A DNA stretch of 60,252 bases from positions 1-60,252 of the forward strand of contig SBBM01000023.1 in the NCBI GenBank assembly GCA_005239725.1. The letters are read 5' to 3'. The position numbers and the translations under genes were made by a program. Origin of the DNA: Planctomycetales bacterium. GTDB taxonomy: Bacteria; Omnitrophota; Gorgyraeia; Gygaellales; Profunditerraquicolaceae. Numbering within the stretch: the stretch's first letter is position 1; each line of letters starts with the position of its first letter. The notes under the pieces were generated by a model. The model searched no databases and was not told the DNA's origin. It saw nothing but the letters and a program-made list of their open reading frames with translations. This document shows positions 7,933 through 60,067 of this stretch, piece after piece.

Positions 7933-9189
7933 TTAACTGGCGTCTTCATTTACCTCCCTGACAGAACTGAGAAAAGAACCTTTGGCCAATATTGTTTTTA
8001 CCGAATCGCCGGGTTTTAATTTGTCTGCCTCTCTGATAATTGCCCCGTCGGGCATAAGCATAGTCAGGCTGTAGCCGCGCGATAATATGGAAAGGGGGCT
8101 TAGGGTCTCTAATTTTTCAATTAAGGATTTGAACTTTTCTTTTAACATATTCAAGAAATGCGCTGCATTTGAATTTAATGCGTTAACCAGCTCATCAAGC
8201 AGCTGCTGCTTTTCCAATAGCCGGTCTAAGGGGCTCTTGAGCATATGCCTTAAAGCCACAAGGCCATGGCGCAGATCAGCAATAAACGTTGAAAGTGAAG
8301 AGTTTAACCTGTATTTATAAGTGTCTATCTGAGCAAGCAGCGCGTTTTTCTTATCCACGATAACCTTGGCTGCGGCTGACGGTGTTTCCACAAATACATC
8401 CGCCACAAGGTCGGAAAGCGTAACGTTTATCTGATGGCCAACGGCAGAAATCGTAGGTATTCTGGAATTATATACTGCCCTGGCAACGGCCTCTTCATTA
8501 AATGACCAGAGGTCTTCGAGGCTACCCCCTCCGCGGCAGATTATGATTACATCCACTTCCTTTCCCGCAAAATGCGGGATCCCGCCCTCACCTTCATTCG
8601 CTTGGCGGGAATATTTATTAAAGTCTTCGATTGCCTCGGCTATCTCCCGCCAGGCGCCCTCGCCTTGCACCCTTACCGAGCGTATCAGGACATCTACGCA
8701 AGGGGCGCCTTTCTTAAGTATCTGCAATATATCCCTCACTGCCGCGCCGGCGCTAGAGGTAACAATGCCAAGCCGAAACGGCATAAGGGGAAGCGGTTTT
8801 TTATGTTCAGGGGCAAACAGGCCCTCTTTAAGCAACCTGGCCTTTAACTGCTCAAAAGCCAACTGCTGCGCGCCCACCCCTTCAGGCTCAATCTTTTCTA
8901 CGATTAACTGGTATTGCCCGCGCGGAGAGTAGACTTCAATCCTGCCGAAGCATATTACCTTAAGCCCGTCTTCAATCTTAAATTTAACTTCGCGATTGGC
9001 GCGGATAAACATCGCCGCTGCCAGGACCGAAGCTTCATCTTTTATGGTAAAATAAAAGTGGCCGGATGTAGCTACTTTAAAATTAGAGACCTCCCCCTCA
9101 ACCCAGACCTCTCTGAATGTGTTCTCTAAAACTACTTTTATATCGCGGGTAATCTCGGATACCGTATAGATGTGCCTGGTTTCTACCAT
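7933..9189 (-). CDS. xseA: Exodeoxyribonuclease VII large subunit, carrying an in-frame palindromic-element insertion
   Basis: OB-fold N-terminus VWVEGEVSNFK, GIVTSSAGAAVRDI, RGGGSLEDLWSFNEE. Confidence 0.9.
   Translation of the reverse strand: MVETRHIYTVSEITRDIKVVLENTFREVWVEGEVSNFKVATSGHFYFTIKDEASVLAAAMFIRANREVKFKIEDGLKVICFGRIEVYSPRGQYQLIVEKIEPEGVGAQQLAFEQLKARLLKEGLFAPEHKKPLPLMPFRLGIVTSSAGAAVRDILQILKKGAPCVDVLIRSVRVQGEGAWREIAEAIEDFNKYSRQANEGEGGIPHFAGKEVDVIIICRGGGSLEDLWSFNEEAVARAVYNSRIPTISAVGHQINVTLSDLVADVFVETPSAAAKVIVDKKNALLAQIDTYKYRLNSSLSTFIADLRHGLVALRHMLKSPLDRLLEKQQLLDELVNALNSNAAHFLNMLKEKFKSLIEKLETLSPLSILSRGYSLTMLMPDGAIIREADKLKPGDSVKTILAKGSFLSSVREVNEDAS
8563..8610 (+). repeat. Double-hairpin palindromic element, 48 nt, inside the xseA coding sequence
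   Basis: TCCCGCA-AAA-TGCGGGA | TCCCGCC-N17-GGCGGGA. Contains GCGGGATCCCGC at 8574-8585. Confidence 0.85.
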
Positions 9190-9195
9190 AGCATT

Positions 9196-11001
9196 TTAAT
9201 TTGCACTTGAGCCGGCAGGCTCTTGCGGTGCTTCCTTTTTCGCAGCCGGCTCTGCCTGTGCTTGTTTCGGCTGTTCCGCAGGCGCAACAACTTCAGGCGA
9301 CGGCTCGGGTTTAATCTTTAGAATAATCAAGCTCACCGAATATGGCTCTAGTGTTAAGGCTTCCTGATAAATACCGGCGGGAGTTATCTCTTTTTCTTCC
9401 AGGGGGTTAAATTCGCAATTGGCGCTGCAGAGCGAACTTACAACATACCTTTCATATAGATAATTTTCTTTTAAATTTTTAAAGTTTAGTTTTATATTCC
9501 GGCTGGATTCCCTGAATTTTGCGGCCTTGTCATTTAAATCCAGCGCCTTCTTTAATAACTCCTTTACTTTTCTGCTTAAAGGCAGCCTTGCGATATCCAC
9601 TTCCCGGCGGATAATCTTATCCAGTTTTTCAGACTTGATAATGCCAAGCAAGGGCCTCCTTTCTTTTTCCGCCAATAGGGCGATTTCCGCAGAAAGGGAA
9701 TTCATAAAAATTCCCGGGTCAATGTAATTATAAATCAATACGGCAAGGCCGTCGCCCGTCTTCGTGGCAATCCCCCCGCAGAATTCATCGTTAAGTTTAA
9801 CCTGATACATATCATTTCCTAACCTTTTTAACATCCGGAGGACATGGTACGTTGCCTTCGCCCCCCCCTTATACCCCTTGGGGTCCTGGTCAAACCAGAA
9901 TATGCCGGTATTCCTTGCTACCCCTTCTTTATTTTCTTTGAAATCCTCCAGTGAAAAAAAGAGCTGATAATCAATGTCTGCGTCGTGCATATTCTTAAGG
10001 CGGGCAGGGATGTAACTTGCCGAGATAAAAGACTTCTCCTGCCTTTCCGGCAGAAGATTGGCGCCGCTATCATAATTCCATTCGTCTATTACCAGAGGGA
10101 TATTACTGTCGAAGTTAAAGTAAGCAAGCCATTCCCTGATAAGCCCGACTGCCGTCTTATTATATGCGGTAACCTCTTTTTCCGGTTTTGCGCCGGTTGA
10201 ATAGGCATGCCAGGTAATAAAATCCAGGGGGAGGTTTTTTTCCGAGCAGAATTTGATTAATTCGTAGATGAGGCTTTTTTCTGGCTCAACTACATTATTG
10301 CCGTCAAAGCCCTGAAACCACCAGCTTACGCTGGGGCCGCCGACGGGAATATCAATTTTAGTCTCCGTTTCCAATTCCCGTGCGCTTTCGGCAACTGCGC
10401 GGTACAAATCCAGATACTCCTGCCTGCCGCCCACAAAAAATTCATCCAGGTCAGGCGCGCTCCATACTTCATACCAGACCTTATATTTTTTATTACAGCT
10501 GAATTCTCTGATATACCCTTTTATTAATTCCTTAAATGCCTTTAAATCCCAGGGCGCGCTCTTTTTATCCAGAACTTTGCCTAACCCCGGAGGCATGCTG
10601 AAAATATCTAAGATAACCGTGCCGCCTGAATCGCTTATATTCCCGATTATCGTCCCGTAATTAGCCAATAACTTATCCTGGGCATCCTTGTCTTTGGCTA
10701 ACTGGCTAATCTCCCAAAGGGTAAACTGCAGCCGGTATATCCCGGAAAAGCCGATATCTTTCCGCCAGGCATCCAGGGCCTCCTTTGCCGCCAATACCTG
10801 CGGCCAGGTGGGGTCGGCATGGAATCCACGGCCGGATAAATCAATATTCGGCTGGAAAATTTTTGGCAAGGGGACGGTGCTTGCCGCAGCGTCAACGGTA
10901 AACTCCAAATCTCCTTCCTGGGCAAAAACAGTAGATAGTAAATAGTAGTTAGTAGATAGGGCTAAAAAAAGCAAAATGCTATAAATTTTTTTCTTGATCA
11001 T
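9196..11001 (-). CDS. Secreted glycoside-hydrolase-like TIM-barrel protein (clan GH-A / GH39-like) with a Pro/Ala/Glu-rich C-terminal tail
   Basis: Signal peptide MIKKKIYSILLFLALS...AQE. WYEVWSAPDL aligns by memory to the GH39 WxEIWNEPN motif. Also IDEWNY. Low-complexity tail PEPSPEVVAPAEQPKQAQAEPAAKKEAPQEP. Confidence 0.5.
   Translation of the reverse strand: MIKKKIYSILLFLALSTNYYLLSTVFAQEGDLEFTVDAAASTVPLPKIFQPNIDLSGRGFHADPTWPQVLAAKEALDAWRKDIGFSGIYRLQFTLWEISQLAKDKDAQDKLLANYGTIIGNISDSGGTVILDIFSMPPGLGKVLDKKSAPWDLKAFKELIKGYIREFSCNKKYKVWYEVWSAPDLDEFFVGGRQEYLDLYRAVAESARELETETKIDIPVGGPSVSWWFQGFDGNNVVEPEKSLIYELIKFCSEKNLPLDFITWHAYSTGAKPEKEVTAYNKTAVGLIREWLAYFNFDSNIPLVIDEWNYDSGANLLPERQEKSFISASYIPARLKNMHDADIDYQLFFSLEDFKENKEGVARNTGIFWFDQDPKGYKGGAKATYHVLRMLKRLGNDMYQVKLNDEFCGGIATKTGDGLAVLIYNYIDPGIFMNSLSAEIALLAEKERRPLLGIIKSEKLDKIIRREVDIARLPLSRKVKELLKKALDLNDKAAKFRESSRNIKLNFKNLKENYLYERYVVSSLCSANCEFNPLEEKEITPAGIYQEALTLEPYSVSLIILKIKPEPSPEVVAPAEQPKQAQAEPAAKKEAPQEPAGSSAN
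10930..10960. repeat. Heptamer tandem array AGTAGAT AGTAAAT AGTAGTT AGTAGAT AGG inside the signal-peptide coding region
   Basis: Read directly. Encodes LSTNYYLLSTV on the minus strand. Confidence 0.8.
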
Positions 11002-11777
11002 AGTTTCTTTTGTATCCGTATGATTGACTTTGCCTTGCCTGTTTCTTCGTCTATATCTACCGCTACGCCCTGCAATTGTATATTCTCGCCAGCCACCTCA
11101 AACCTTACCGGTACCCCGGTAATAAACTTTTCCAATACATCCTCTACTCTCCTGCCAATGACTGAATCGCAAGGGCCGGTCATCCCCACGTCCGTAATAT
11201 AAGCTGTGCCCTGCGGAAGGATTTTTTCATCGGCAGTCTGCACATGCGTATGCGTGCCCAAAACTGCGGACACCTTGCCGTCTAAATACCAGCCTAAAGC
11301 CACTTTCTCCGAAGTTGCTTCGGCGTGGATATCCACAAGGATTATCTTTGCCTCCTTAGATAACTCCTCCGCTGCCTGCATAGTTGTGTGGAACGGGCAT
11401 TCAAGGGGGTCCATAAAAACCCTGCCCACAACACTGATAACTCCGATTTTGATTCCTTTTTTTGTTTCGAATACGCCGTAACCCCTTCCCGGAGCTCCGA
11501 CAGGAAAGTTTAGCGGCCTTAAAATCCGCTCCTCGCGGTCAATAATTTCAAAAATCTCCCGCTTCTTCCAGATATGGTCGCCGGAAGTAAGTACGTCAAC
11601 GGAGAAATTAAACAACTCCTCTGCTACCTTTCCGGTTATGCCTGAGCCTCCGGCTGCGTTTTCCGCGTTAGCCACGACAAAATCAAGGGAATATTCTTTT
11701 TTTAAGGCCGGCAAAAGCTTCTCTATCGTCTCCCTCCCTGGCCTGCCTACAATATCTCCGATAAATAAAATATTCAT
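10998..11777 (-). CDS. ymdB: YmdB-like metallophosphoesterase (TIGR00282 type)
   Basis: MNILFIGDIVGRPGR, NAENAAGG, GDHIW, GTHTHVQTADE. Lies downstream of rny, as in Bacillus. Confidence 0.85.
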   Translation of the reverse strand: MNILFIGDIVGRPGRETIEKLLPALKKEYSLDFVVANAENAAGGSGITGKVAEELFNFSVDVLTSGDHIWKKREIFEIIDREERILRPLNFPVGAPGRGYGVFETKKGIKIGVISVVGRVFMDPLECPFHTTMQAAEELSKEAKIILVDIHAEATSEKVALGWYLDGKVSAVLGTHTHVQTADEKILPQGTAYITDVGMTGPCDSVIGRRVEDVLEKFITGVPVRFEVAGENIQLQGVAVDIDEETGKAKSIIRIQKKL

Positions 11778-11873
11778 TCCGCACAACTCCCAAAAACACT
11801 TGTCTTGTTGCGGGACAGTCCCCTTTAAAATACTGCGAATTAGCTTTGCCGGGGAGAGTCCCTGGCGGCAATA

Positions 11874-15315: not shown

Positions 15316-15567
15316 AAAAAAAATCCCCGCATTGTGCCGTTGGCTTGATGGGGCTGAACCGTTTAGGTTACAGGTGGGTGCCTCCCTTTAACGCCTAAGC
15401 GATAAAGGAGTCTAAGCACCCATTATTTTGGTGTTGGTCCACCAATCATCAATTTCCCAACGTGCACCGCAGGGATATCTTTCCGTCCGCTTATTTCATA
15501 TATCGCGGCATCCCGCCTGCTATTGTATAGCTTGGCGGGAAAAAGAACTTTTCTTTCTCCTCCAGGC
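15316..15567 (-). ncRNA. Candidate structured small RNA or leader (~250 nt) of unknown class
   Basis: Promoter TTGACT-N17-TATACT (15602-15574, minus). Long-range helix 15457-15474 with 15325-15343. Internal hairpin TGGGTGC...GCACCCA at 15375-15422. U8 run at 15316-15323. No plausible ORF. Confidence 0.45.
15483..15544 (-). repeat. Double-hairpin palindromic element copy (intergenic, minus orientation)
   Basis: Minus strand reads TTTTTCCCGCC-AAGCTATACAATAGCA-GGCGGGA TGCCGC-...-GCGGAC. It is nearly identical in its first hairpin to the 44947 copy. Confidence 0.8.
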
Positions 15568-17405: not shown

Positions 17406-19511
17406 CTACCTGAATTTGGCTTGAAATTTATCCGCCAACACGCCGGATATGGAAGAATGAAGCGGGGTTACCTCTGCTTCGGTTAAGGTACGTTCGCAAG
17501 AACGATAAAGGCAGGATATGGTTAAGCCTTTAAATCCGGCAGGGATTTGTTTACCTTTATAAGAATCTATGATTTTAGTCTCGGCAAGTAAATCTCCCGC
17601 GCCTTCCTTTATTACTTGCAGTATTTTTCCCACCGGAACATCATCTTTAAGTATAAGGCTTAAATCCCTGGAGATGCCGGGATATAACGGCAGGGATTTA
17701 AATTCCCGCTTTAAGCTTATAGAGCCGGACAACTTTTCCAGGGAAACCTCGGCAACAAAGGCATCCCTGTTTTTTATTTCAAGGTTATCCAAAACATCCC
17801 TTTTCAGCTTGTGGAGCGCGCCTATCTTTTCTTTGCCTAAAGCCACTTCTATCTTATAAGCATCGGGCGTAAGATTAAAATTGTAATCTCTGATGCCCAG
17901 CCTGTCGAAAATAACTTGTAAAATTCCTTTTAGATGCAGAAAGCCTGCTCCATCCTTTACCTGCCCTTGCTCAAACCAGAGGCTTCTTACGCCGCATAAA
18001 GCAATGCCCAGGATTAACTCCTCTTTTGGCATGCCGTTCTCTTTGGAAAAACCTTTGGCGATTTCAAATATATTAATGTATTCCTGTTTTTGGTTAAGAT
18101 TAACAGCCAGACATTTACCCAGGCTGGGGATAAGAGTCGGCCGTAAAATCTCTTGTTCCCTGCTTAAAGGATTTAAAATTTCCGCGCTCTCGGCATAATC
18201 TTGGCCAAAACCTTTTAACAAGCCCCTGTCAATAAGACTGTAAGTAATTACCTCGTTTAGGCCCAACCCTGTAAGAATATTTTTGATGAGCCCAACCTGC
18301 TCTCTTAACCCCGGCCTGTTTATCCCCGGGGTAATCACGGGCAGGGTGTTGGGTATATTTTCATAGCCGTATATGCGGGCTATTTCTTCAACCAGGTCAA
18401 CCCCGGTTTTTACGTCCGGACGGAAAGATGGCACCTTAACATTTAAAATATTTTTTCCTTTTGATTCAACCTTAAAATCCAAGTTGCTTAATATAGATTT
18501 TATTTTGGCCGCGGCGATATTTATGCCTAAATTTTTATGGACGAATTCCGCATCCAGGGCGATTATTGTTTTCTTTTTCGCGAGACTTCCGGAATCTTTA
18601 ACTAAAACTAATTCTCCTCCGGCTAATTCCCGGATTAGCTCTGCCGCGCGGGAGGAAGCCTTTTCAACCAATTCAATATCCACTCCCCTTTCAAATCTAT
18701 AGGAAGATTCGCTCTCTACCCCCAGCATTCTTCTCCCCCGGCGGATGAGCACAGGGTCAAATACCGCCGCCTCAAGGAGCATATTTACCGTTCCTCCGGC
18801 AACTTCGCTGTCTTTTCCGCCCATAACCCCTGCGACAGCCACAGGTTTTTCTCTGTTCGCAATAACTAAAATTTCGGGGTTAAGCGCTTTTTCCCGCCCG
18901 TCAATAATCGTTATCTTCTCGCCTTTCTTTGCCCGGCGGATAATTATTCTATCGCTGTTTAATTTATCCAAATCAAAGGCGTGTAGAGGCTCCCCCAGCT
19001 CAAACAAAACGTAATTGGTAATATCGACAATGTTATTTACACTGCGGCAGTCTAATAATTCCAGCCTTTTTTTAAGCCACTCCGGCGAAGGTCCGACTTT
19101 TACCCCTTTGATTATTTTAGCGGTGTACAAGGGGCAGTCTTTTTTATCTTGAACATTTATTGTTAATGTTTTAGCGTTTAGCGGGTAGCGTTTTCCCGCA
19201 ATGCTATCTCTTAGCTTGCGGGATCCCGCTCTACGGGAAGCGTATAGGATTTTGTTTCTACTATCCGCTATACGCTCTACGCTATGCGCTCGAATTTTTG
19301 CCTTTGTTATTGCCGCTACTTCCCTGGCGACCCCGGCCACGCTCAGCCAGTCCGGACGGTTAGATGTAATTTCGATCTCAAAAATAAAGTCTCCACCGCG
19401 CCCTTCCAGAGATGTAACTTCCAGGCCAGCCATGGTAAGCTTATCGGCAAGTTGTGCCGGCGGAATCCTAATATCTACGAAGTCTTTTAGCCAGTTATAT
19501 GTAATTTTCAT
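17406..19511 (-). CDS. pheT: Phenylalanyl-tRNA synthetase beta subunit. It lacks the N-terminal OB/tRNA-binding domain and carries an in-frame repeat insertion.
   Basis: MKITYNWLKDFV, NRPDWLSVAGVAREVAA, DITNYVLFELGEPLHAFD, SSYRFERGVD, C-terminal FDX-ACB-like end. Confidence 0.9.
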   Translation of the reverse strand: MKITYNWLKDFVDIRIPPAQLADKLTMAGLEVTSLEGRGGDFIFEIEITSNRPDWLSVAGVAREVAAITKAKIRAHSVERIADSRNKILYASRRAGSRKLRDSIAGKRYPLNAKTLTINVQDKKDCPLYTAKIIKGVKVGPSPEWLKKRLELLDCRSVNNIVDITNYVLFELGEPLHAFDLDKLNSDRIIIRRAKKGEKITIIDGREKALNPEILVIANREKPVAVAGVMGGKDSEVAGGTVNMLLEAAVFDPVLIRRGRRMLGVESESSYRFERGVDIELVEKASSRAAELIRELAGGELVLVKDSGSLAKKKTIIALDAEFVHKNLGINIAAAKIKSILSNLDFKVESKGKNILNVKVPSFRPDVKTGVDLVEEIARIYGYENIPNTLPVITPGINRPGLREQVGLIKNILTGLGLNEVITYSLIDRGLLKGFGQDYAESAEILNPLSREQEILRPTLIPSLGKCLAVNLNQKQEYINIFEIAKGFSKENGMPKEELILGIALCGVRSLWFEQGQVKDGAGFLHLKGILQVIFDRLGIRDYNFNLTPDAYKIEVALGKEKIGALHKLKRDVLDNLEIKNRDAFVAEVSLEKLSGSISLKREFKSLPLYPGISRDLSLILKDDVPVGKILQVIKEGAGDLLAETKIIDSYKGKQIPAGFKGLTISCLYRSCERTLTEAEVTPLHSSISGVLADKFQAKFR
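19172..19290 (+). repeat. Composite element: heptamer arm (TAGCGNN x3), double-hairpin core, inverted heptamer arm. Entirely inside the pheT coding sequence.
   Basis: Left arm at 19172-19192. Core TCCCGCA-N16-TGCGGGA TCCCG-CTCTA-CGGGA at 19194-19238. AGCGTATAGG. Right arm ATCCGCT ATACGCT CTACGCT ATGCGCT at 19263-19290. Confidence 0.85.
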
Positions 19512-20059
19512 CCTTGGGTTACTTTCTTAAACTCTTTGACTAAATTACTCGCCGCGATATCCGAAAATTCCTTAAGCCATTTTTTTATATACGCCGTATC
19601 CAATGCCTTTTTATTCTTTTCCCACAAAACCCTTACATCCTCTAAATCGCGCGGGCGACCAGCGAACATTTTATGGATAACCGTATCCTCGCAAGAAGCA
19701 AAATTAACATTATAATTATTTAATTTTACTTTCCTGGCTCTTTTTAATGCTTGTTTTTCGTAAGGCGTAAACGAAAAGATAAAATCAACCCGTATGCCTG
19801 TTTCTTTATCCACCCCTACCAAAACATTGGTCTTTCTTACAAAGCTATCGTTGGCATTTTTAGGGATTACCAAGCCCGCTCCCTCCAGAACGCTCTTCAT
19901 CTTATCTAATTTATCAATATCTACGCCCAGGGTGATATCTATATCTTCTGTCAGCCGAACCAAGCCATATAAAAGAACAGCCTGACCTCCAATGAGCATA
20001 TAAGGAATTTTATTTTTATCCAAACGCTTGGCGATATTTGCAATTAACTTTTGAATCAT
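19508..20059 (-). CDS. Minimal nucleotidyltransferase (Pol-beta superfamily; DUF2204/DUF6036/AbiEii-like, exact family not resolvable by eye)
   Basis: YMLIGGQAVLLYGLVRLTEDIDITL (G[GS]-x9-13-DxD), IRVDFIF (third acidic residue), GRPRDLEDVRVL. ATGA overlap with the pheT start. Confidence 0.7.
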   Translation of the reverse strand: MIQKLIANIAKRLDKNKIPYMLIGGQAVLLYGLVRLTEDIDITLGVDIDKLDKMKSVLEGAGLVIPKNANDSFVRKTNVLVGVDKETGIRVDFIFSFTPYEKQALKRARKVKLNNYNVNFASCEDTVIHKMFAGRPRDLEDVRVLWEKNKKALDTAYIKKWLKEFSDIAASNLVKEFKKVTQG

Positions 20060-20260: not shown

Positions 20261-21277
20261 TCAAAATTGTTTTAAAAACCGTAAATCGCTTTCCGCGAAA
20301 AGCCTGATATCATTAATCCCGTATTTGAGCATGGCAATTCTTTCTACGCCCATGCCAAAGGCAAATCCGGTATAAATTTTCGGGTCATACCCGACATGCT
20401 TAAAGACATTGGGGTGGATCATCCCGGAACCTAAAATTTCAAGCCAGCCTTTTCTTCCGCAAACCGAACAACCCTTACCTTTACAAATTATGCAGGAGAT
20501 ATCCACCTCTGCCGAGGGCTCGGTAAAAGGGAAGAAGTGCGGCCGAAAACGCATCTTGATATCTTCTCCGAAAACAGATTTGGCAAAGACTTCCAGGATA
20601 CCTTTTAAATCCGAAAATTTTATATTTTTATCCACCATAAATCCTTCTATCTGATGAAACATAAAGGAGTGGCTGGCATCCACGGCATCCGGGCGATAAA
20701 CCCTGCCAGGCACAACTATTGCCAGGGGCGGCTTGCGCGATTTCATTGCCCGGATTTGCACCGGCGAGGTGTGACTGCGTAAAAGTAGCTTCTTTTTTGT
20801 TTTTAGATAAAAGGTATCAAAGGCATCCCGCGAAGGATGCTCCAGCGGGATATTTAATCCGGTAAAATTATTTTCTTCGCTTTCGATTTCCGGACCCTCT
20901 ACAACAGAAAATCCCATGCCGGTAAAAATAGAGCAGATTTCATCAATGAGCTGAGTTAAGGGGTGTAGCCGCCCTAAATCCTGGGCAATGCCGGGCATAG
21001 TGATATCTACCTGTCCGGCTGTGGGCGCGCCTACGTCAATGGAAGCAAAGGATTTTTGTTTCTCGTTAAGAAGGGTGTTGATTTTATTTTTAAGAAGATT
21101 GACCTTTTGCCCAAAGGCGCCCCGCTCTTCTTTGGGGAGCTGAGGGATGGAGCCGGTTAATTCGGCAAGGACACCCTTCCTGCCTAAATAGCGCACCCGC
21201 AATTCCTCTAATTTATCCGAAGAATCTATGCCGGATATTTCGTTTTCTATTGTTTGATTAATCGCGTCAATATCCAT
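20261..21277 (-). CDS. pheS: Phenylalanyl-tRNA synthetase alpha subunit
   Basis: HPSRDAFDTFY, FRPHFFPFTEPSAEVD, GFAFGMGVERIAMLKYGI. Confidence 0.95.
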   Translation of the reverse strand: MDIDAINQTIENEISGIDSSDKLEELRVRYLGRKGVLAELTGSIPQLPKEERGAFGQKVNLLKNKINTLLNEKQKSFASIDVGAPTAGQVDITMPGIAQDLGRLHPLTQLIDEICSIFTGMGFSVVEGPEIESEENNFTGLNIPLEHPSRDAFDTFYLKTKKKLLLRSHTSPVQIRAMKSRKPPLAIVVPGRVYRPDAVDASHSFMFHQIEGFMVDKNIKFSDLKGILEVFAKSVFGEDIKMRFRPHFFPFTEPSAEVDISCIICKGKGCSVCGRKGWLEILGSGMIHPNVFKHVGYDPKIYTGFAFGMGVERIAMLKYGINDIRLFAESDLRFLKQF

Positions 21278-44908: not shown

Positions 44909-45020
44909 GTCCCCATCGTCTAGCCTGGCCCAGGACAAGAGCTTTTTCCCGCCAGGCTATGGGATAGCAGGCGGGATCCCGCCCTGATGCGTAAAGGGGT
45001 CGGGCGGGACAAGCTCTCGA
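44909..45020 (+). pseudogene. tRNA-Glu(UUC) 5' fragment (positions 1 to ~46), interrupted in the anticodon by a 63-nt palindromic element
   Basis: 44909-44946 is identical to 45268-45305, and 45010-45020 is identical to 45306-45316. No T arm or 3' acceptor strand. Confidence 0.85.
44947..45009 (+). repeat. Double-hairpin palindromic element, archetype copy (63 nt)
   Basis: TCCCGCC-AGGCTATGGGATAGCA-GGCGGGA | TCCCGCC-CTGATGCGTAAAGGGGTCG-GGCGGGA. Confidence 0.9.
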
Positions 45021-45024
45021 TCGC

Positions 45025-45267
45025 ATGTATTGTGTGTATGTTCTAGAGAATGCAAAAGGCAAACATTATATCGGTAGTTGTGAAAATTTAGACCTGAGAT
45101 TAAAACGGCATAATCAAAACAGCGTCAGGTCAACAAAGAATAAGGGGCCTTTTAAAATAATCTATAAAGAGGAATTTTGCACGGTAACGCAAGCGCGTAG
45201 GCGCGAGAACGAACTAAAAAGCTATAAAGGCAACGCCAAATTTCAGAAAACAATAGATAGAATGTAA
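45025..45267 (+). CDS. Stand-alone GIY-YIG nuclease-domain protein (80 aa)
   Basis: YCVYVLENAKGKHYIGSCENLDLRLKRHN (GIY...YIG), ARRRENELK. Its stop codon abuts tRNA-Glu position 1. Confidence 0.8.
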   Translation: MYCVYVLENAKGKHYIGSCENLDLRLKRHNQNSVRSTKNKGPFKIIYKEEFCTVTQARRRENELKSYKGNAKFQKTIDRM

Positions 45268-45342
45268 GTCCCCATCGTCTAGCCTGGCCCAGGACAAGAG
45301 CTTTTCAAGCTCTCGACACCGGTTCAAATCCGGTTGGGGACG
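45268..45342 (+). tRNA. tRNA-Glu (anticodon UUC)
   Basis: Acceptor GTCCCCA/TGGGGAC, anticodon arm AGAGC-TTTTCAA-GCTCT, T arm ACCGG-TTCAAAT-CCGGT. Confidence 0.9.
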
Positions 45343-51725: not shown

Positions 51726-53003
51726 ATGAAGATATTAATCAAGAATGGTTTAGTGGTTGACCCGGCAAACGGTATCTCCGGCGAAATCCTGGATATTTTA
51801 GTTCAGGGGACGAAAATATCCAGAGTGGCCAAAAATATAAAAACCGGCGCCGAAAAAGTTATTGATGCCTCCGGGAAAATCGTAATGCCCGGCCTGGTAG
51901 ATATGCACGTGCACTTAAGGGAGCCGGGGAGGGAAGACAAAGAAACCGTTGAAAGCGGCACAACCGCGGCAATAAAAGGCGGGGTCACTTCTCTTCTGGC
52001 CATGCCCAACACAAATCCGGCAATTGACAGTGCAGGGAATGTGCGCCTCTTAAAAAATATTATTAATAAGACTGCCGAGGCAAATGTGTTTATCTGCGCC
52101 GCAATTACCAGGGGTCGGTTAGGCAAAGAAATCACAGACATCGCCAAATTAAAGAAAGAGGGGGTTATCGCTATTTCCGAAGACGGCTCTTCGGTTGACT
52201 GCGAAGCGCTGATGCTGGATGCGCTTCAAAAAGCCAGAGAAGAAAAAATATTGGTTATTTCTCACTGCGAAGATAAAACCCTTTCCAATAACGGCATGAT
52301 TAACCTGGGGTTTGTTTCCACCCGGCTGGGGTTAAGAGGGATTTCTAGGGAATCGGAATATAAAAGAGTAGACAGAGATATCAGCCTGGCGGAAAAAATA
52401 AAATCCCCCTTGCACATCGCCCATCTAAGCTGCAAGGAATCGGTTGAGATAATCGCTAAAGCCAAGAAAAGAGGCATTAAGGTTAGCTGTGAAACTGCGC
52501 CGCATTATTTTGTCTTAAGTGAAGAAGATTTGCTCGGATATGACACTAACCTGAAGATTAACCCTCCCCTGCGCGGCAAGGGCGACATAAGCGCGATAAA
52601 AAAAGGCTTAAAAGACGGGACAATCGATGTTATTGCCTCGGACCACGCCCCGCACACTGAAAATGAAAAAGATGTGGAGTTTGACCATGCGGAATTCGGC
52701 ACAATAGGCCTTGAAACAGAATTAGCGGTTGCTATCACGGAACTTGTAAAGAAGGGCTTTTTGGATTGGCAGGGGCTGGTAGAGAAAATGTCATTAAACC
52801 CGGCAAAAATTTTAGGCATAAACAGGGGCACTTTAGGTACAGGCGCTGAAGCGGATATCATTGTGGTCGACCCGGACAAGGAATGGGTGGTTACAAAAGA
52901 AAACCTCGTTTCTAAATCCAGAAATTCCGCTTTTCTGGACAGGAGATTAAACGGCGTGGTTTGCTATACGCTTTGCTCCGGTGAGGCTGTTTACCCGCCA
53001 TGA
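51726..53003 (+). CDS. pyrC: Dihydroorotase
   Basis: PGLVDMHVHLREPG, ASDHAPH. 425 aa. Confidence 0.9.
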   Translation: MKILIKNGLVVDPANGISGEILDILVQGTKISRVAKNIKTGAEKVIDASGKIVMPGLVDMHVHLREPGREDKETVESGTTAAIKGGVTSLLAMPNTNPAIDSAGNVRLLKNIINKTAEANVFICAAITRGRLGKEITDIAKLKKEGVIAISEDGSSVDCEALMLDALQKAREEKILVISHCEDKTLSNNGMINLGFVSTRLGLRGISRESEYKRVDRDISLAEKIKSPLHIAHLSCKESVEIIAKAKKRGIKVSCETAPHYFVLSEEDLLGYDTNLKINPPLRGKGDISAIKKGLKDGTIDVIASDHAPHTENEKDVEFDHAEFGTIGLETELAVAITELVKKGFLDWQGLVEKMSLNPAKILGINRGTLGTGAEADIIVVDPDKEWVVTKENLVSKSRNSAFLDRRLNGVVCYTLCSGEAVYPP

Positions 53004-53461
53004 AATTTATTCTCACCAGGGAAGTGGGAAGACTGGCTAAGTGGCTGAGGATATTAGGGTTTGACGCCGAATATTTTACCGAAGGCCCGACGGGTTCGCT
53101 TATTGTCCAGGCGTTAAGGGATGAGCGGATAATCCTAACCCGTAACCACAGGCTTCCTAAAACCAAAGGCATTAAAATTGTAGTAATCTCGGCGGAAAAA
53201 ATTAAGGAGCAGCTTGCCGAGGTTTTGCGAGAACTAAAAATTAAGCCCGATTCAAAAAAGATGTTTAGCCGCTGCACCCTCTGTAATGCCGGGCTGGCAG
53301 AGATTGGCAAGGACAGGGTTAAAGATAAGGTCCCCGCATACGTATTCGCCACTCAAAAGAACTTTTTAATCTGTCCGGAGTGCGGCCGCATTTATTGGCA
53401 GGGCACGCACTGGGGTAACGTTCAGGATATAGTTAGGAAGTTAGGGGAGTTAGGAAGTTAG
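53000..53461 (+). CDS. Mut7-C / DUF82 PIN-like RNase domain protein with a zinc ribbon
   Basis: GRLAKWLRILGFD, ILTRN, CTLCN...CPECGRIYWQGTHW. Confidence 0.75.
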   Translation: MKFILTREVGRLAKWLRILGFDAEYFTEGPTGSLIVQALRDERIILTRNHRLPKTKGIKIVVISAEKIKEQLAEVLRELKIKPDSKKMFSRCTLCNAGLAEIGKDRVKDKVPAYVFATQKNFLICPECGRIYWQGTHWGNVQDIVRKLGELGS

Positions 53462-53507
53462 GGGAGTTAGGAAGTTAGGGGAGTTAGGAAGTTAGGGGAG
53501 TTAGGAA
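53431..53507 (+). repeat. Perfect tandem repeat (AGTTAGGAAGTTAGGGG) x4 plus a 9-nt partial unit
   Basis: Units at 53431, 53448, 53465 and 53482. Spans the Mut7-C stop (53459-53461) and runs to 3 nt before the next ATG. Confidence 0.95.
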
Positions 53508-53509: not shown

Positions 53510-54748
53510 ATGGAGTTTATAGCGGATTTCCATATTCATTCTAAATACTCGCGCGCTACTTCCAAGGATATGGATGTAAAGCATGTTGCGGAGTGGGCAA
53601 AATTAAAGGGCATTACCCTGATGGGCAGCGGAGATTTCACGCATCATCTTTGGCTGGAAGAATTAAAGGCAAATTTAGAAGATTTGGGTAATGGATTATT
53701 CAAATACAACGGGGTGTATTTTGTCCTCACCGTTGAGATAAGCAGCATATATTCAAAAAACGGCAGGGGTTACCGCATACACAACATGATTTTCGCCCCC
53801 TCATTTAAAACCGCGGATAAAATAAACGACGCGTTATCGCGGCGGGGAAATTTAAGTTCGGATGGCAGGCCCATACTGGGGCTGGATGCCGAGGAACTCG
53901 CGCACATCATATTCGATATTGACGAGAACTGCATGGTTGTGCCCGGGCATATCTGGACCCCCTGGTTTAGCCTCTTCGGTTCAATGTCGGGTTTTGATAA
54001 GATTGAAGATTGCTTTGAGAAAGAAACCCCGAAAATATTTGCATTGGAGACCGGGCTTAGCAGCGACCCTGGTATGAACTGGCGGCTCTCCGCACTGGAT
54101 AAATTTGCATTAATCAGTAATTCCGACAGCCACTCGCCGCAGAAGATCGGCAGGGAGGCCAATGTCTTTGACTGTGAATTGGATTATAAAACTATAAGGG
54201 AGGTATTAAAAACTAAAGATAAGAAGAGGTTTTTATACACCATAGAATTTTTCCCCGAGGAAGGCAAGTATCATTTTGACGGCCACCGCCTCTGTAATAC
54301 CCGGCTTTCCCCGAAAGAGACAAAACAGAATAAGGGAAAATGCCCCAGGTGCAGCAAGAACGTTACCGTGGGAGTAATGAACAGGGTTGAGCAGCTGGCC
54401 GACAGGGAAGAAGGATTTAAGCCGGATAATTTAATTCCGTTTAAAAATCTTATCCCGCTCGATGAAATTATTGCCGAGGCCAAGGGCGTGGGGAAGGTCA
54501 CGCAGGCAGTAGAAAGGGAATATCGCAGTTTAATATCTAAATTCGGCACGGAATTTAACATTTTGCTCAAGGTCCCCAAAGAGGATTTAATTAAGAATGC
54601 CCCGGAACGCATCGCCGAAGGTATTATCAGGATGCGCGAAGGCAAAGTCAACATTAAAGCCGGTTACGACGGAGAATACGGGATAATTTCCCTTTTCGGG
54701 GAAGACGAAAAACCCAAAGAGCCCGAGCAGCAGATGAGCCTCTTCTAG
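53510..54748 (+). CDS. Endonuclease Q-like PHP-domain protein (TIGR00375 type)
   Basis: ADFHIHSKYSRATS, GSGDF, PGHIWTPWFSLF, SNSDSHSPQKIGREANVF, CPRCSKNVTVGV, AGYDGEYG. Colinear with archaeal EndoQ as recalled from memory. Confidence 0.7.
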   Translation: MEFIADFHIHSKYSRATSKDMDVKHVAEWAKLKGITLMGSGDFTHHLWLEELKANLEDLGNGLFKYNGVYFVLTVEISSIYSKNGRGYRIHNMIFAPSFKTADKINDALSRRGNLSSDGRPILGLDAEELAHIIFDIDENCMVVPGHIWTPWFSLFGSMSGFDKIEDCFEKETPKIFALETGLSSDPGMNWRLSALDKFALISNSDSHSPQKIGREANVFDCELDYKTIREVLKTKDKKRFLYTIEFFPEEGKYHFDGHRLCNTRLSPKETKQNKGKCPRCSKNVTVGVMNRVEQLADREEGFKPDNLIPFKNLIPLDEIIAEAKGVGKVTQAVEREYRSLISKFGTEFNILLKVPKEDLIKNAPERIAEGIIRMREGKVNIKAGYDGEYGIISLFGEDEKPKEPEQQMSLF

Positions 54749-56163: not shown

Positions 56164-57089
56164 TATTTGCGTTTGTCTTTTACGTAGTTGCTTTTCTCTA
56201 CACCCTTGGCGTAACTTTTCAGTTCCGCGCCGATTTCGCCTATCTGGGCAACGTGTTCTATCTTCCTGAATTCATTGGTAACTACGCCGATGGAAATGGA
56301 GACAAGGGGGATTTTACGTTCCGTGCCCTGACGGTCATGACCGATTATGTAGCCATTTTTTCTGTCGGTTTCATTGTAAAAAGAAGGCGATATTTTATCG
56401 AAGTCCGCGATTATCTTTTCGCATATTTTATCTGACGTTTCAAGCGCAGTAACAACCACAAAATCATCGCCGCCGATATGGCCTATAAAATCATCCGGTC
56501 CGCCCTCTTCCTTGACCGCGCGTATCAAAGTACGGGCGGTTTCTTTTATAACTTCGTCTCCGTGCTCAAACCCGTACTTATCGTTATAGGCTTTGAATTT
56601 ATCCAGGTCTATGTAGCATACTGCAAAGAGCGCTTTACTTTCTATCCGGCGCGAAAACTCATTCAATATGGAAACATTGCCGGGGAGTCGCGTTAAGGGG
56701 TTTGCCTCAAGGTCCCTGACTGCGCGCCGGATAACCATGCGTATGCGCGCCAGCAGTTCTTTGGGCTCAAAGGGCTTCACTATATAATCGTCTGCGCCGG
56801 CATCAATGCCGCCGACCTTACTATCCACATCGCCTGAGCCGGTTACCATTATGACAGGCAGATGGCTTAAGAGGATGTCGCCTTTAATTTTTTTACAGAC
56901 TTCCCGTCCGTCCATTTTCGGCATATGGTAATCTAAAAGCACTATGTCGGGCTGTTTTGTGAGCACTGCTTTAAGCGCGTCTTCGCCGTTAGCGGTTTCG
57001 ATAACTTCATAATTCTCTTCGGAGAGTGTTAGCTTAATCACGTCTCTAATATCGGGGTCGTCATCGGCTATCACTATTTTTATAGCCAT
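56163..57089 (-). CDS. Response regulator with a GGDEF-type domain (variant GGDDF motif)
   Basis: REC: IADDDPDIRD, DIVLLDYHMPKMDG. Output: PLTRLPGN, DLDKFKAYNDKYGFEHGDEV, HIGGDDFVVV. Confidence 0.8.
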   Translation of the reverse strand: MAIKIVIADDDPDIRDVIKLTLSEENYEVIETANGEDALKAVLTKQPDIVLLDYHMPKMDGREVCKKIKGDILLSHLPVIMVTGSGDVDSKVGGIDAGADDYIVKPFEPKELLARIRMVIRRAVRDLEANPLTRLPGNVSILNEFSRRIESKALFAVCYIDLDKFKAYNDKYGFEHGDEVIKETARTLIRAVKEEGGPDDFIGHIGGDDFVVVTALETSDKICEKIIADFDKISPSFYNETDRKNGYIIGHDRQGTERKIPLVSISIGVVTNEFRKIEHVAQIGEIGAELKSYAKGVEKSNYVKDKRK

Positions 57090-57103
57090 ATAAATTACTC
57101 CTC

Positions 57104-58600
57104 TTAAGGCTGCGGCAGGGTAAAGCTAAAGGTTGAGCCTGTGCCCACCTTGCTCTTAACCCAAATTTTTCCTTTATGCGCCTCAATGATATTTTTTACC
57201 AGCGTAAGGCCGAGCCCCGTGCCCTTTACTTCCTGGTTGATGGGGTTATCCACGCGGTAAAATTCTTCAAAGATTTTGCTTTGGGCCTCTTCCGGTATGC
57301 CGCAGCCGGTGTCGCTAATATCTATCTGGGCCTGTTCGCCTGCTTTATAACTTTTAATGGTAATTTTACCACCGGGAGGGGTAAATTTCAAGGCATTATT
57401 GATTATGTTTATAAAGACGCGTTTTATCTGGTTATAGTCTACAAACACGCTCTTGGCGTCATCGGCTATATTGCAGGATAATCCTATCTTTTTTTCCTTC
57501 AATAATACTCCTAATAGGTCCGAAACCTCCGCTGTAATCCTGGTCAAGTCCTGTGCCTCCTGTTTCATCGTAACCTTGCCTGACTCGATGCGCGAGATGT
57601 CCAGGAGATCATTGACGAACTGCACAAGCTCATCCGTGTGCTTGTTTATTTTTTCCAGGCGCGCCCTCACTTCATCGGGCAGGACCCAGAGTTTTGACGC
57701 CAGCAATATGGAGGCATAGCCTTTTACCGAGGTAAGCGGCGTCCTTAATTCATGCGAAACGCTTGAAACAAAATCGGTTTTGCGCTTGCTTATGTTTTTT
57801 ACTTCTTCCAAAGCCAGGGTTAATTCGCGCGTCCTTTCCTTTACCTTATTCTCCAGTTCCTGGTGCGCGCGCCAGGTAGTTTCAAAAAGCCGGGCATTCT
57901 CCAGCGCCTGGCCAATCTGGTTAGCCAGTATCGTGATTAACTCCTCGTCTCCTTCCGTCAGCGGTGTTTCCGCGTTTTCCGTGCCGACGAAAAAAAAGCC
58001 CTTGTTCCCTTCCTTGGGCAGTATAGGCGCAACAATAAAAGAGTTAACCTTAAAGGCATTGCATATCTTTTCTTTTGTAACACTGTCTTGGGAAAGGGAA
58101 ATAGAGGATAAAGTCCTGGAGGTTTTTATTATATCGAGGAAGGCATTCTTATTTAAATCCACGAAGGAGGCTATGGGTCCTGTTTCGTCTTCCGCATAAC
58201 CGATATCCAGGCGCGGCACGAATTTCTTATCTTTCTCATTCCATAAAAATGCCATTGATTTTTCAAAGCCAAGGTCTTCCAGCAGGGCAGGCTCAACCCT
58301 TGTAAAAATCTGGTCTTCTTCCAGGGTGGTGCTTATTGTGCGAGAGAGTTTTTGCAGGGAATAAAGCCCGGTTATCTTTTTATCCAGCTCTTCCTGGAGG
58401 TTATTTAATTCCATGTCCGTGGAGACAAGGAGTTTGGCCTGCTCGTCCATTTCCTCCAGGGTCTTTTGCAAGTTATCCACCTTAGCCCGCAGCTCTTTTG
58501 TCTTATTTGATTTTATCGCAAGGGCAACGCTAAGGGCCGCTGCGGATAGTATGCCGATTGGCCCGAGCACGCTAATGATGGAATATGGCTGGTTCTGCAT
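57104..58600 (-). CDS. Sensor histidine kinase (TM, coiled coil, GAF-like, HisKA, HATPase)
   Basis: FVSSVSHELRTPLTSV H-box, NALKFTPPGG (N box), DTGCGIP (G1), GTGLGL (G2). Confidence 0.85.
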   Translation of the reverse strand: MQNQPYSIISVLGPIGILSAAALSVALAIKSNKTKELRAKVDNLQKTLEEMDEQAKLLVSTDMELNNLQEELDKKITGLYSLQKLSRTISTTLEEDQIFTRVEPALLEDLGFEKSMAFLWNEKDKKFVPRLDIGYAEDETGPIASFVDLNKNAFLDIIKTSRTLSSISLSQDSVTKEKICNAFKVNSFIVAPILPKEGNKGFFFVGTENAETPLTEGDEELITILANQIGQALENARLFETTWRAHQELENKVKERTRELTLALEEVKNISKRKTDFVSSVSHELRTPLTSVKGYASILLASKLWVLPDEVRARLEKINKHTDELVQFVNDLLDISRIESGKVTMKQEAQDLTRITAEVSDLLGVLLKEKKIGLSCNIADDAKSVFVDYNQIKRVFINIINNALKFTPPGGKITIKSYKAGEQAQIDISDTGCGIPEEAQSKIFEEFYRVDNPINQEVKGTGLGLTLVKNIIEAHKGKIWVKSKVGTGSTFSFTLPQP

Positions 58601-59848
58601 TTACCCTCCGATATTCAAAACCGACACGGTCTGATTGTGGATATAAACCTTGCCGAGCCTGTTAGCCGCCCTTAGCGGGGCAAGTTCGCCGTGGGCATAT
58701 AAACCTATCAGCGGCGTATCCGGGCCGAGCCCCTCTTTAATGATTTCTAACTCCTTGTCCAGCTCTTTTCGTAGAAGGGCGTACCTGGAAAGCGAACTAA
58801 AAACTACGGCAAAATTATTGGTTTCCATTTTTTTCATTTCACTCACTGATGCGGATAATCCCTTTTTGGCCTCATCTACTGCGTGCCTGGTCGCGTCGAG
58901 GCAGGTTTCCTTGGTGCCGATCATCAGCCTTATCCTGCTATCCTGAGGGACGTTGCTCTGGAAACGCAGGGAGCCGTTTTCTTCTATTGAGAGGATATTC
59001 CGCAAGAGGTATTCTTCTTCTCCGGCCAGGTATATCCCCAAGGGGTAAAGGACGGATATCCTTTTTAGTTCTGTTTTTAATTTCGCAGAATCGCAATCCA
59101 GGTAGTGCTCATAGAATTTTACCGCAGGCTTATCGTCTATTTTTTCTACCAGATTGCCTTTTACAGAGGTTACCGTATGGGGCTTGCCCAGGGGTTTCCA
59201 GCCGTGTTTGACGCCTAAGCCGAAACTTAATTTTCCTCCCAGGAGTATGCCGGCGCAGGCATCGCTGAAAATATCCTGATGGTAATAGAGGTGAGTCTTA
59301 AGCAGACTAGGGTTGTTTGAGGCATAAGCGCCTACCAGAGGGAAGCTTGAGCCGAGCCTGGTCTGCAGCCCGTAAATAAAATTTGAATCTTCCTCTATCA
59401 GTTTATCGGAAAACACCAGGCCTAAAGTGCGCGGGATATTCTTAAATTGCTGGAGGAGTTTGTCGCCCAGCTCTTCTCCTGCAGCAAGGCCTCCTTTTAC
59501 GCTAATCTCCCTGGTGCAGGCGGCATTGTAATGTATGCTTTTGGGGAAACTGACGAGCATTATGGCCAGGCCGTGTTTCAATATGCCCTGGTTAGATATA
59601 ACTGCCAGGCCGCTTGCGCCTATTATCGGCACGCCTTCTAACATGCTGCCAATGGTTTTTAAGAGGGGCGGGGAAGAAAGGTCCGTAGAACTAAAGACAA
59701 TAGCCAGGTTAACTCTCTCTTTTTGCATTTTTGTCCTGGCGCTCCTCACCGCCTCCTTTGCCGCTAAGGTAGGGTTTTTTTCAAGGCTTATGCCTGCGCC
59801 CAGAGTCATCATGCTTTTTATTAAAACATAAATTCCGCCGGGGGTCAA
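58601..59848 (-). CDS. FIST-domain (FIST_N + FIST_C) sensory protein
   Basis: 415 aa. The layout of N- and C-terminal FIST halves is recognised by overall pattern only. First gene of the three-gene signalling operon. Confidence 0.55.
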   Translation of the reverse strand: MTPGGIYVLIKSMMTLGAGISLEKNPTLAAKEAVRSARTKMQKERVNLAIVFSSTDLSSPPLLKTIGSMLEGVPIIGASGLAVISNQGILKHGLAIMLVSFPKSIHYNAACTREISVKGGLAAGEELGDKLLQQFKNIPRTLGLVFSDKLIEEDSNFIYGLQTRLGSSFPLVGAYASNNPSLLKTHLYYHQDIFSDACAGILLGGKLSFGLGVKHGWKPLGKPHTVTSVKGNLVEKIDDKPAVKFYEHYLDCDSAKLKTELKRISVLYPLGIYLAGEEEYLLRNILSIEENGSLRFQSNVPQDSRIRLMIGTKETCLDATRHAVDEAKKGLSASVSEMKKMETNNFAVVFSSLSRYALLRKELDKELEIIKEGLGPDTPLIGLYAHGELAPLRAANRLGKVYIHNQTVSVLNIGG

Positions 59849-59902
59849 TAAAATTATTGACCCGAAAATAAATTATGCTATATTATTTTAAATATATATT
59901 TC

Positions 59903-59977
59903 GGCCCCATCGTCTAGCCCGGTCCAGGACGCGTGCTTCTCAGGCACTAAACACGAGTTCAAATCTCGTTGGGGCTA
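59903..59977 (+). tRNA. tRNA-Glu (anticodon CUC)
   Basis: Acceptor GGCCCCA/TGGGGCT, anticodon arm CGTGC-TTCTCAG-GCACT (one C-U mismatch), T arm ACGAG-TTCAAAT-CTCGT. Confidence 0.8.
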
Positions 59978-60067
59978 TTCTACCGGTTCTCCCCCCCAAT
60001 CTATACGCTAGAGGGCGGGATCCCGCTCGCGGTAAAATAAAATGGCGGGAAAATCTGGTTGGGGCTA
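59978..60067 (-). repeat. Palindromic-element copy inserted at the tRNA-Glu(CUC) 3' end, followed by a 17-nt duplicate of the tRNA end
   Basis: CTATACGCT plus GGGCGGGATCCCGC core at 60012-60049. AAATCT[C/G]GTTGGGGCTA occurs at 59961-59977 and at 60051-60067. Confidence 0.8.

Follow-up and report, generated by a model that had tools for sequence, protein, structure and literature searches.

The REP, BIME and REPIN sequences of Proteobacteria, mobilised by RAYT (a Y1 HUH transposase), are short imperfect palindromes without coding capacity that occur in many dispersed copies, with conserved stems, variable loops, long-lived orthologous copies and a replicative form that is an inverted doublet, able to fold into either a single long hairpin or a pair of them. 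Rickettsia palindromic elements (RPEs) are likewise palindromic and non-autonomous and lie in RNA genes, in spacers and, in frame, in essential protein genes, where they add a peptide to a loop. The fungal mitochondrial DHEs of Allomyces and GC clusters of yeast (PMC4478555) are very small, take a two-hairpin form and carry G+C-rich stems amid A+T-rich DNA in spacers, RNA genes and coding regions. All of these features, mobilisation by RAYT apart, recur in the element that we describe here, a double hairpin (DH) made of two abutting hairpins and found in five copies of 45-63 bases each in a 60,252-base contig from an uncultured Omnitrophota bacterium, the whole of which was analysed and is hereafter called the window. 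We propose that DHs probably constitute a new family of very small, non-autonomous palindromic insertion elements, akin to REP/REPIN sequences, RPEs and mitochondrial DHEs; a literature search on the exact 12-mer at their centre and on palindromic or hairpin elements in Omnitrophota and Patescibacteria returned no description of this family.

Each DH has the general form TCCCGC(C)-loop-(G)GCGGGA|TCCCGC(C)-loop-(G)GCGGGA, and its halves meet in the palindromic 12-mer GCGGGATCCCGC, exact at positions 8574, 19218, 44971 and 60015 and with one mismatch at 15505 (Table 1). The initial annotation of the window had picked out this 12-mer as a dispersed family recalling REP/BIME and Rickettsia elements, and both the family and the likeness stand: the five matches compare with 0.12 expected, a number reached in none of 100 shuffles, every one of them is the junction between two abutting hairpins, and the unit TCCCGC-N3-33-GCGGGA occurs eight times against 0.14 expected. 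Folded as single-stranded DNA, four of the five copies beat their shuffles (z -4.4 to -5.8); the fifth, at 59990, is degenerate (z -0.9). An inner stem GCTAT-NNN-ATAGC, also pointed out at the outset, is indeed common to the units at 15511 and 44947. An unfiltered scan of the window with a covariance model built from 50 related units gave no further convincing DH copy, its sole extra match being the candidate monomer listed in Table 1, and a scan against Rfam 15 at the gathering score gave no match at any of the window's DHs. The named closest homologues of the window's XseA and PheT are all proteins of 'Candidatus Omnitrophota/Omnitrophica' metagenome-assembled genomes (MAGs).

Table 1 Positions of the double hairpins in the window, their host genes and neighbouring features (ORF, open reading frame; aa, amino acids).
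Feature	Position	Strand	Structure and context
DH copy 1	8563-8610		Short hairpin 8563-8579, long hairpin 8580-8610; inside xseA, in frame, encodes SRQANEGEGGIPHFAG
DH copy 2	15482-15540		Degenerate unit 15482-15510, long unit 15511-15540; leader of 6S RNA
DH copy 3	19194-19238		Long hairpin 19194-19223, short hairpin 19224-19238; inside pheT, in frame, encodes SRRAGSRKLRDSIAG
DH copy 4	44947-45009		Two long hairpins, 44947-44976 and 44977-45009; anticodon loop of truncated tRNA-Glu(UUC) copy
DH copy 5	59990-60050		Degenerate unit 59990-60020, long unit 60021-60050; T-loop of partial tRNA 3' copy
Possible single hairpin TCCCGCGAAGGATGCTCCAGCGGGA	20826-20850		Inside pheS; uncertain (unit search and covariance model, E about 0.16)
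xseA	7933-9189	minus	Reads through DH copy 1 in frame, +16 aa
6S RNA gene	15320-15478	minus	Rfam RF00013, 62.3 bits; leader carries DH copy 2
pheT	17406-19511	minus	All four Pfam domains intact; carries DH copy 3, +15 aa
Outer insertion, PheT linker	19165-19290		Heptamer repeats TAGCGNN ... CTANNCG; hosts DH copy 3; separate repeat family
Pseudo-tRNA-Glu	44909-45020	plus	Repeats nt 1-46 of the tRNA at 45268; split by DH copy 4
GIY-YIG nuclease ORF, 80 aa, stand-alone	45025-45267	plus	Pfam PF01541, E 1e-14; pseudo-tRNA on one side, intact tRNA-Glu on the other
Intact tRNA-Glu(UUC)	45268-45342	plus	
Intact tRNA-Glu(CUC)	59903-59977	plus	Followed by partial T-arm/acceptor copy carrying DH copy 5

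The reading of DHs as insertions is carried by orthologous loci with and without them. In an alignment of 22 Omnitrophota XseA proteins, nine lack the insert, twelve have it (one as 11 amino acids) and one has a different insert of 19 amino acids; when the window's protein is aligned with Escherichia coli XseA (8TXR), its 16 extra residues fall in a gap between AIELAN and CDVLIVGRGGGS. Empty sites in the DNA have the sequence GCG TTT|AAG CAG (locus L122) and CGG TTC|AAA CAG (L123), and the site is also empty in the five close metagenome relatives in which it can be read (among L132-L135, L137 and L138) and in a more distant relative, L139. Filled sites read TT(T/C)[TCCCGC ... GCGGGA]AA(G/A), with a DH of 48 nt in four loci and of 33 nt in L214, in which the long unit has collapsed; the window's site exceeds the empty ones by exactly 48 nt, and the target is not duplicated. 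DH copy 2 separates the -10 box (TATACT) from the mature 5' end of the 6S RNA, and comparison of the empty leader of L123 (TATACT ... ctctttt|aaATATCCCTGCC) with the filled leader of the window (gttcttt[DH]aagATATCCCTGCGG) again gives an exact insertion with no target duplication. At the level of sequence comparison, precise insertion without target duplication is shown at both the xseA and the 6S site, and the exact ends of the element, which comparison with loci lacking it had been expected to supply, are thereby defined. In PheT, the closest orthologue (P0122, 82% identity) is without DH copy 3, which in the window is nested within another palindromic, heptamer-repeat insertion; in P0146 the surrounding outer sequence (...KKLYA|KRYPLNAK...) is present and the DH absent. 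Related genomes hold no unit in 15-21 kb, against five DHs in the window's 60 kb, and a negative control of 536 kb around xseA of other bacteria, a metagenome scan meant for filled xseA DNA that yielded only empty sites and distant phyla, contained no DH.

The family extends far beyond the window. A strict pattern, TCCCGC-N3-24-GCGGGATCCCGC-N3-24-GCGGGA, scanned over one genome per GTDB species (185,579 species), matched at least 120 loci against about 1 expected at 50% G+C, its chance level reaching a few tens in very G+C-rich genomes. Assigned to groups by record title, the listed loci comprise at least 43 from Omnitrophota, including the complete genome of Candidatus Velamenicoccus archaeovorus, at least 36 from Patescibacteria/CPR, at least 8 each from Planctomycetes and from Lentisphaeria/Kiritimatiellae, at least 7 from Bacteroidota/Ignavibacteria, at least 5 from uncultured Gammaproteobacteria, at least 2 from Armatimonadota, at least 1 from Bdellovibrionales and at least 6 that are unclassified. 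Four further loci among the matches listed come from high-GC taxa (Sorangium, Aquincola, Streptosporangiales and Terriglobia) and are probably random, the one respect in which chance, or a coding or compositional artefact, would account for the data; for the window and the low-GC phyla that explanation is already refuted by the counts in the window and in GTDB set against expectation, by the 536-kb control and by orthologous presence and absence, and we regard its overall probability as practically negligible. The scan of related genomes that had been called for thus returned further copies in quantity, and the comparison of orthologues gave filled and empty sites rather than ordinary conserved DNA.

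Among the matches listed, several MAGs hold four or five DH loci each, and some matches lie on complete chromosomes (OZ246412.1, from Saccharibacteria, OY969888.1 and OZ246408.1), which makes binning error unlikely. Judged by its sequence, the same element with the same stem is present in at least six mostly uncultivated bacterial phyla. REP families, by comparison, are species- or genus-specific; RPEs are 100-150 bp long, confined to Rickettsia and its relatives and decaying, whereas DHs are of 30-65 nt, cross-phylum and exact in their stems at synonymous sites; and the Allomyces DHEs and yeast GC clusters are organellar and have no sequence similarity to DHs, the yeast GC clusters also duplicating a TAG target. 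A phage carrier was considered and rejected, a viral collection having given only three DH matches.

Counts of flanks, frames, tRNA neighbours and covariation given here refer to a set of 126 copies. Units come in a short form of 15-17 nt and a long form of about 30 nt, the latter oriented and with the consensus TCCCGCCAAGCGATTAAAT..GAGGGCGGGA. Wherever orientation can be called, a DH consists of two units abutting in inverted orientation, [A][reverse-complement A], the whole being a nested palindrome of 30-65 nt; its terminal inverted repeats measure about 14 nt (in the long-long form, TCCCGCCAAGCGAT ... ATCGCTTGGCGGGA), and a 20-nt palindrome (GAGGGCGGGATCCCGCCCTC) lies at its centre. Lengths are trimodal, at 30-34 nt (short plus short), 45-48 nt (short plus long) and 60-65 nt (long plus long), and units were counted as dimers, the canonical form, in 127 cases and as monomers in 27, the latter including several decayed dimers, and never as trimers. 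The element is thus a nested palindrome of defined polarity, spread past one genome and one phylum, which the initial annotation had not recognised. DH units, unlike those of REPs, have no spacer, and no GTAG-type 5' tetranucleotide was seen; unlike the repeats of a CRISPR array, they abut and never stand more than two in a row; and, unlike an intrinsic terminator, a DH has its T run upstream and its A run downstream, with copies inside ORFs as well. Short-unit triloops are GNA or its complement (TNC) in 44% of cases against 12.5% expected. GNA is the loop type of unusually stable DNA mini-hairpins such as d(GCGAAGC), and the GNA-rich triloops suggest that a DNA hairpin or cruciform is the relevant form.

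Five filled xseA orthologues, the window's and four of 68-73% protein identity to it, allow the stems to be followed over time. Their eight stem codons (TCC CGC / GGC GGG ATC CCG / GCG GGA) show a single synonymous change in 40 codons, with loop and flanking codons varying freely; in L214 the long unit has collapsed to TCCCGC-TGTG-GCGGGA with its stems retained, and the short-unit loop is inverted between lineages (CATTTTG versus CAAAATG). Old copies carry compensatory changes. The stem of L130 reads CCCCGC/GCGGGG, and in L090 a full-length bacterial RNase P RNA (4656-5050, minus strand; 203 bits) has a 47-nt DH in a peripheral helix with the stem TCCCGTC/GACGGGA, a C-G to T-A change. A compensatory change in the seventh pair, TCCCGCA/TGCGGGA, had been proposed earlier; the change is present, but it makes poor evidence, the seventh position showing no significant covariation across the 126 copies. 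Covariation from the covariance-model alignment was dropped from consideration, perfect stems dominating the matches and being uninformative on pairing. Synonymous-site conservation together with the compensatory changes in L130 and L090 best supports the view that DH stems are, as far as alignments can tell, under sequence-specific constraint at the nucleotide level, and since the stems are identical across phyla and at synonymous sites, they may be the recognition site of a sequence-specific protein, either a mobilising enzyme or a host factor.

Conservation of this kind could also mark a domesticated structural motif, a functional site that the host keeps and that was dispersed anciently rather than an active mobile element, perhaps bound by a protein of the nucleoid, gyrase-like or recombination type, or else stabilising RNA or signalling its processing. 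Such a motif would fit stems that are identical at synonymous sites over deep divergence and the same in several phyla, loops that differ among all copies of one genome with no recent bursts, and DHs placed where signals for the processing of RNA would be at work, namely downstream of tRNAs and in the leader of 6S RNA. It sits poorly with the absence of DHs from half of the close XseA orthologues and from all more distant ones, with related genomes that hold no unit in stretches of 15-21 kb against the five DHs of the window, and with the quarter of copies that lie inside ORFs of unrelated proteins, whose in-frame survival is explicable without function. We consider this explanation unlikely.

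Insertion sites have a symmetric preference. T stands at -3 in 58% and at -2 in 75% of copies, A at +2 in 75% and at +3 in 59%, and T at -2 and A at +2 occur jointly in 60%, from which the preferred junction would be TTN|NAA, often at the loop of a stem-loop structure, for instance the arm of a tRNA gene or a second palindrome; a target at the centre of a longer palindrome was rejected, flank complementarity being enriched at offsets 2-3 only. Unlike the extragenic REPs, about a quarter of DH copies lie in frame inside ORFs (31 of 126 in long open frames), and 25 of these 31 have a length that is a multiple of three. The terminal inverted repeats and non-autonomy of DHs recall MITEs and PATEs, miniature derivatives of insertion sequences (IS) including those of IS200/IS605, which share with DHs the lack of target duplication and hairpins at both ends. 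DHs differ from MITEs in having no fixed-length target duplication, in being far smaller and in that no parent IS was seen near the copies, and from IS200/IS605 PATEs, with their one-sided target tetra- or pentanucleotide, in their symmetric flanks. Direct repeats of at least 8 nt flank about a quarter of copies against 4.5% of control positions, and away from the xseA and 6S sites the repeats are variable in length and offset. Exact period-7 repeats adjoin 9.6% of copies against 0.4% of controls, other periods being not enriched. Beside DHs of other phyla, period-7 repeats (GGATATT, AGTTCTC and GAAATTA) are about 24-fold enriched.

Genes for tRNA are the most frequent landmark near DHs: 18 of the 126 copies lie within 150 nt of one, against about 3 expected, and 16 of the 18 are 14-118 nt downstream, in or beside a partial 3' tRNA copy. 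In most of the tRNA-near cases an intact gene is followed by a partial 3' copy whose anticodon loop (CCTTC|CAAG) or T-loop (GGTT|CAAGTCC or GGTTC|AAATC) houses the DH. In the window, DH copy 4 splits the anticodon loop of the pseudo-tRNA-Glu between nt 35 and 36, as direct comparison with 45268-45342 shows, and DH copy 5 stands in the context ACCGGTTC[DH]AAATCTGGTTGGGGCTA within a partial tRNA 3' copy (59982-60067). Coding, tRNA and intergenic contexts had been reported at the outset; the coding and intergenic assignments hold, whereas the 'tRNA' copies lie in truncated tRNA-gene fragments and not in functional tRNAs, and the contexts now on record are in-frame coding sequence, RNA-gene leaders, a functional RNase P RNA and tRNA-gene fragments. 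ARAGORN finds no tRNA at 44909-45020, and every tRNA piece that hosts a DH is a fragment beside an intact tRNA copy.

The positions in anticodon, D- and T-loops of tRNA-like sequences, and those in essential genes, would be natural for an element acting at the RNA level, a mini-intron or bypass signal removed from transcripts or skipped in them. Excision in silico of every DH copy never restored a complete tRNA across the junction, so that a mini-intron in tRNA was rejected; a tRNA intron interrupts an otherwise complete gene, as no DH does. Coding copies, moreover, are in frame and free of stops, with lengths mostly in multiples of three as given above, and gene callers read through the DH in many orthologues. 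An RNA-level element is in our judgement highly improbable.

Integrase attachment (att) sites in tRNA genes reportedly have sublocations in the anticodon and T-loops, as Williams is said to have set out in 2002. As at such sites, the insertion points of DHs lie in 7-nt loops flanked by symmetric stems, and a partial tRNA copy that starts from the 5' strand of the T-stem beside an intact tRNA resembles an attR remnant; unlike them, DH loci have no integrated island or integrase between the tRNA copies, which are mostly 13-39 nt apart. A snap-back origin for the 5' T-stem piece of the partial copies agrees with L007 and L060 and was rejected on account of L046 and L086, in which 12-15 nt of the piece are true copies of the upstream tRNA. 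The 'tandem array' of L046 was dropped as evidence of mechanism, its repeat unit holding an identical DH and a masked run of N.

DH copy 4 has a GIY-YIG nuclease ORF as its neighbour, whose part in the behaviour of DHs is no more than a candidate one. The arrangement of fragment, DH and tRNA-Glu seen at copy 4 also occurs in Ca. Velamenicoccus archaeovorus (L055), L125 and L130, and all nine examined loci of GIY-YIG homologues, four from the genome-scan loci and five from a homologue search, lie at the gyrA/tRNA-Glu locus, in the order gyrA, fragment, GIY-YIG gene, tRNA-Glu. That search returned 40 homologues, and those with a source name are all from Omnitrophota. Each GIY-YIG locus read at the DNA level has a DH in the upstream tRNA fragment, placed in the anticodon loop, in the D-loop (GTCT|AGCC) or, in L130, in both, and across the tRNA-Glu fragments of these and other loci DHs have entered D-loop, anticodon loop and T-loop independently.

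These loci bear on a reading of DHs as repair scars, synthesised where a nuclease specific for structures or for tRNA genes, such as GIY-YIG, had broken both strands, and template-switched from an existing copy, with no element that excises or inserts. In its favour, the DHs of the GIY-YIG loci read as DNA all lie 11-14 nt from the end of tRNA homology, at two tRNA positions; partial tRNA duplications, like flanking duplications that contain filler nucleotides, look similar to the products of template-switch repair; and no transposase was found. Yet the nine examined genes sit at one conserved locus (gyrA/tRNA-Glu), essentially a single evolutionary context, more than 95% of copies have no nearby GIY-YIG gene, the two clean sites are exact insertions without filler, and both the ends and the polarity [A][rcA] are constant, as befits a defined element. 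We hold the repair-scar explanation to be quite unlikely, and GIY-YIG as a general mobiliser was rejected, the gene adjoining a DH in 4 of the 126 copies and all nine examined loci being the one gyrA/tRNA-Glu locus.

If DHs are, as we favour, a family of very small insertion elements, insertions would persist where they are harmless: as in-frame additions of 10-21 residues to the loops or linkers of proteins, in peripheral helices or leaders of RNA genes, in truncated tRNA copies and in spacers. Mobilisation would take place in trans, by an enzyme not encoded beside the copies. Flanking duplications, period-7 arrays and the arrangement of an intact tRNA with a partial tRNA copy that carries a DH would be products of template switching or slippage at a stable hairpin, kept by selection when an essential tRNA was restored.

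Several observations weigh against this proposal. No mobilising enzyme was found, and no protein family recurs beside the copies: all-against-all clustering of 3504 locus ORFs gave housekeeping families (RuvA, RuvC, an XerC-like integrase, NusB and others) and GIY-YIG only, on which a linked transposase was rejected, and no Y1 (IS200/RAYT-type) transposase appeared in the window or in about 0.9 Mb of loci with an approximate IS608 TnpA sequence as query. In this DHs depart from REPs, no RAYT gene having been seen with that approximate query, and resemble RPEs, no mobilising enzyme being known for either. DH copies inside one MAG have unrelated loops and so give no sign of recent transposition bursts. 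Perfect stems have long been kept in orthologues, which is unexpected of purely selfish, decaying repeats and hints at a correction mechanism or at a function at the level of the host. Direct repeats flank about a quarter of copies, so that the lack of target duplication is read from two clean sites. In L215 the xseA gene (4202-5491, protein P0022) has, at precisely the TTT|AAA site that DHs occupy in other orthologues, a 57-nt hairpin of another sequence, ACCCCGTTAGAGA ... TCTCTAACGGGGT; palindromes other than DHs are thus accepted by the site or by the insertion process, and that process may not be specific for the TCCCGC stem. The case for mobility would consist, finally, of presence or absence at orthologous sites and of dispersal only.

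A wider and more tentative idea, which we put forward as possible, is that DHs are traces left by a DNA-insertion or recombination system, so far undescribed, that uncultivated bacteria with small genomes (Omnitrophota, Patescibacteria, the PVC group and others) share horizontally. What this system recognises would be the TCCCGC hairpin or cruciform, and its targets would be loops in DNA stem-loops, with the D-, anticodon and T-arms of tRNA genes foremost; heptamer arrays and partially duplicated tRNAs would arise as by-products, and the stems would be a protein-binding site kept even in essential genes.

As very small insertion elements (30-65 nt) with exact ends, DHs would make selfish DNA in protein genes, so far an oddity of Rickettsia and mitochondria, widespread in large uncultivated phyla of small-genome bacteria, and one 6-7-bp stem kept across phyla and synonymous codons would imply a sequence-specific partner protein. 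In practical terms, DHs lengthen essential proteins by 10-21 residues, cause breaks in contigs and mislead the annotation of tRNAs and genes in MAGs; GCGGGATCCCGC with its flanking half-sites could serve as a simple marker for horizontal exchange between candidate phyla, and the link to tRNA-gene loops together with the resident GIY-YIG nuclease offers a concrete experimental entry point.

The PheT linker between IAREVAAIT and DKKDCPLYTAKII (window region 19100-19330), where bacterial PheT usually carries the B2 tRNA-binding domain, is hypervariable in 120 Omnitrophota orthologues (P0121-P0240) and constitutes a hotspot for small insertions, being filled with palindromic repeats that are translated and belong to several families (AYSVER/RYPLNAK, HRTPNTEHR and ATCDLR among them). 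The heptamer-repeat family that hosts DH copy 3 there (19165-19193 and 19239-19290) is translated in frame as RAHSVERIADS...RYPLNAK and recurs in the window at 5487-5564, as AGCGGAT x4.3 (5487-5516) followed by CTANACG x4.6 in inverted sense (5533-5564). These repeats resemble the STRR heptamer repeats of cyanobacteria. Between pheS and pheT the window has an ORF of 183 amino acids (19508-20059, minus strand) that overlaps the pheT start by 4 nt; in L123 and L212 pheT directly follows pheS and the ORF is absent at that position. Downstream of gltX, ORFs in L212 (17446-18264) and L214 (18022-18606) have weak LAGLIDADG matches and are absent from the window, adding further homing-endonuclease-like genes to the syntenic block.

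The GIY-YIG/pseudo-tRNA locus itself looks like a free-standing homing-endonuclease cassette bearing the 5' part of its target tRNA. The whole order of gyrA, fragment, GIY-YIG gene and tRNA-Glu is tandemly duplicated in L127, and further small GIY-YIG genes in L073 and L116 abut tRNA genes with partial 5' copies. A subfamily of perfect palindromes, TCCCGCACCTTC..GAAGGTGCGGGA, occurs as single hairpins in L038 (4986-5011) and L214 (423-448), and in L073, at 5740-6080, a related inverted pair, CCCCGCACCTT ... AAGGTGCGGGG, flanks a GIY-YIG ORF.

GC skew and gene orientation in the window both switch near 35 kb, close to gyrA and to an ORF in the position of gyrB, and on this ground the contig probably contains the replication origin. 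A perfect tandem 17-mer, AGTTAGGAAGTTAGGGG x4.5, lies at 53431-53507, at the end of the ORF at 53000-53461 and ahead of that at 53510-54748.

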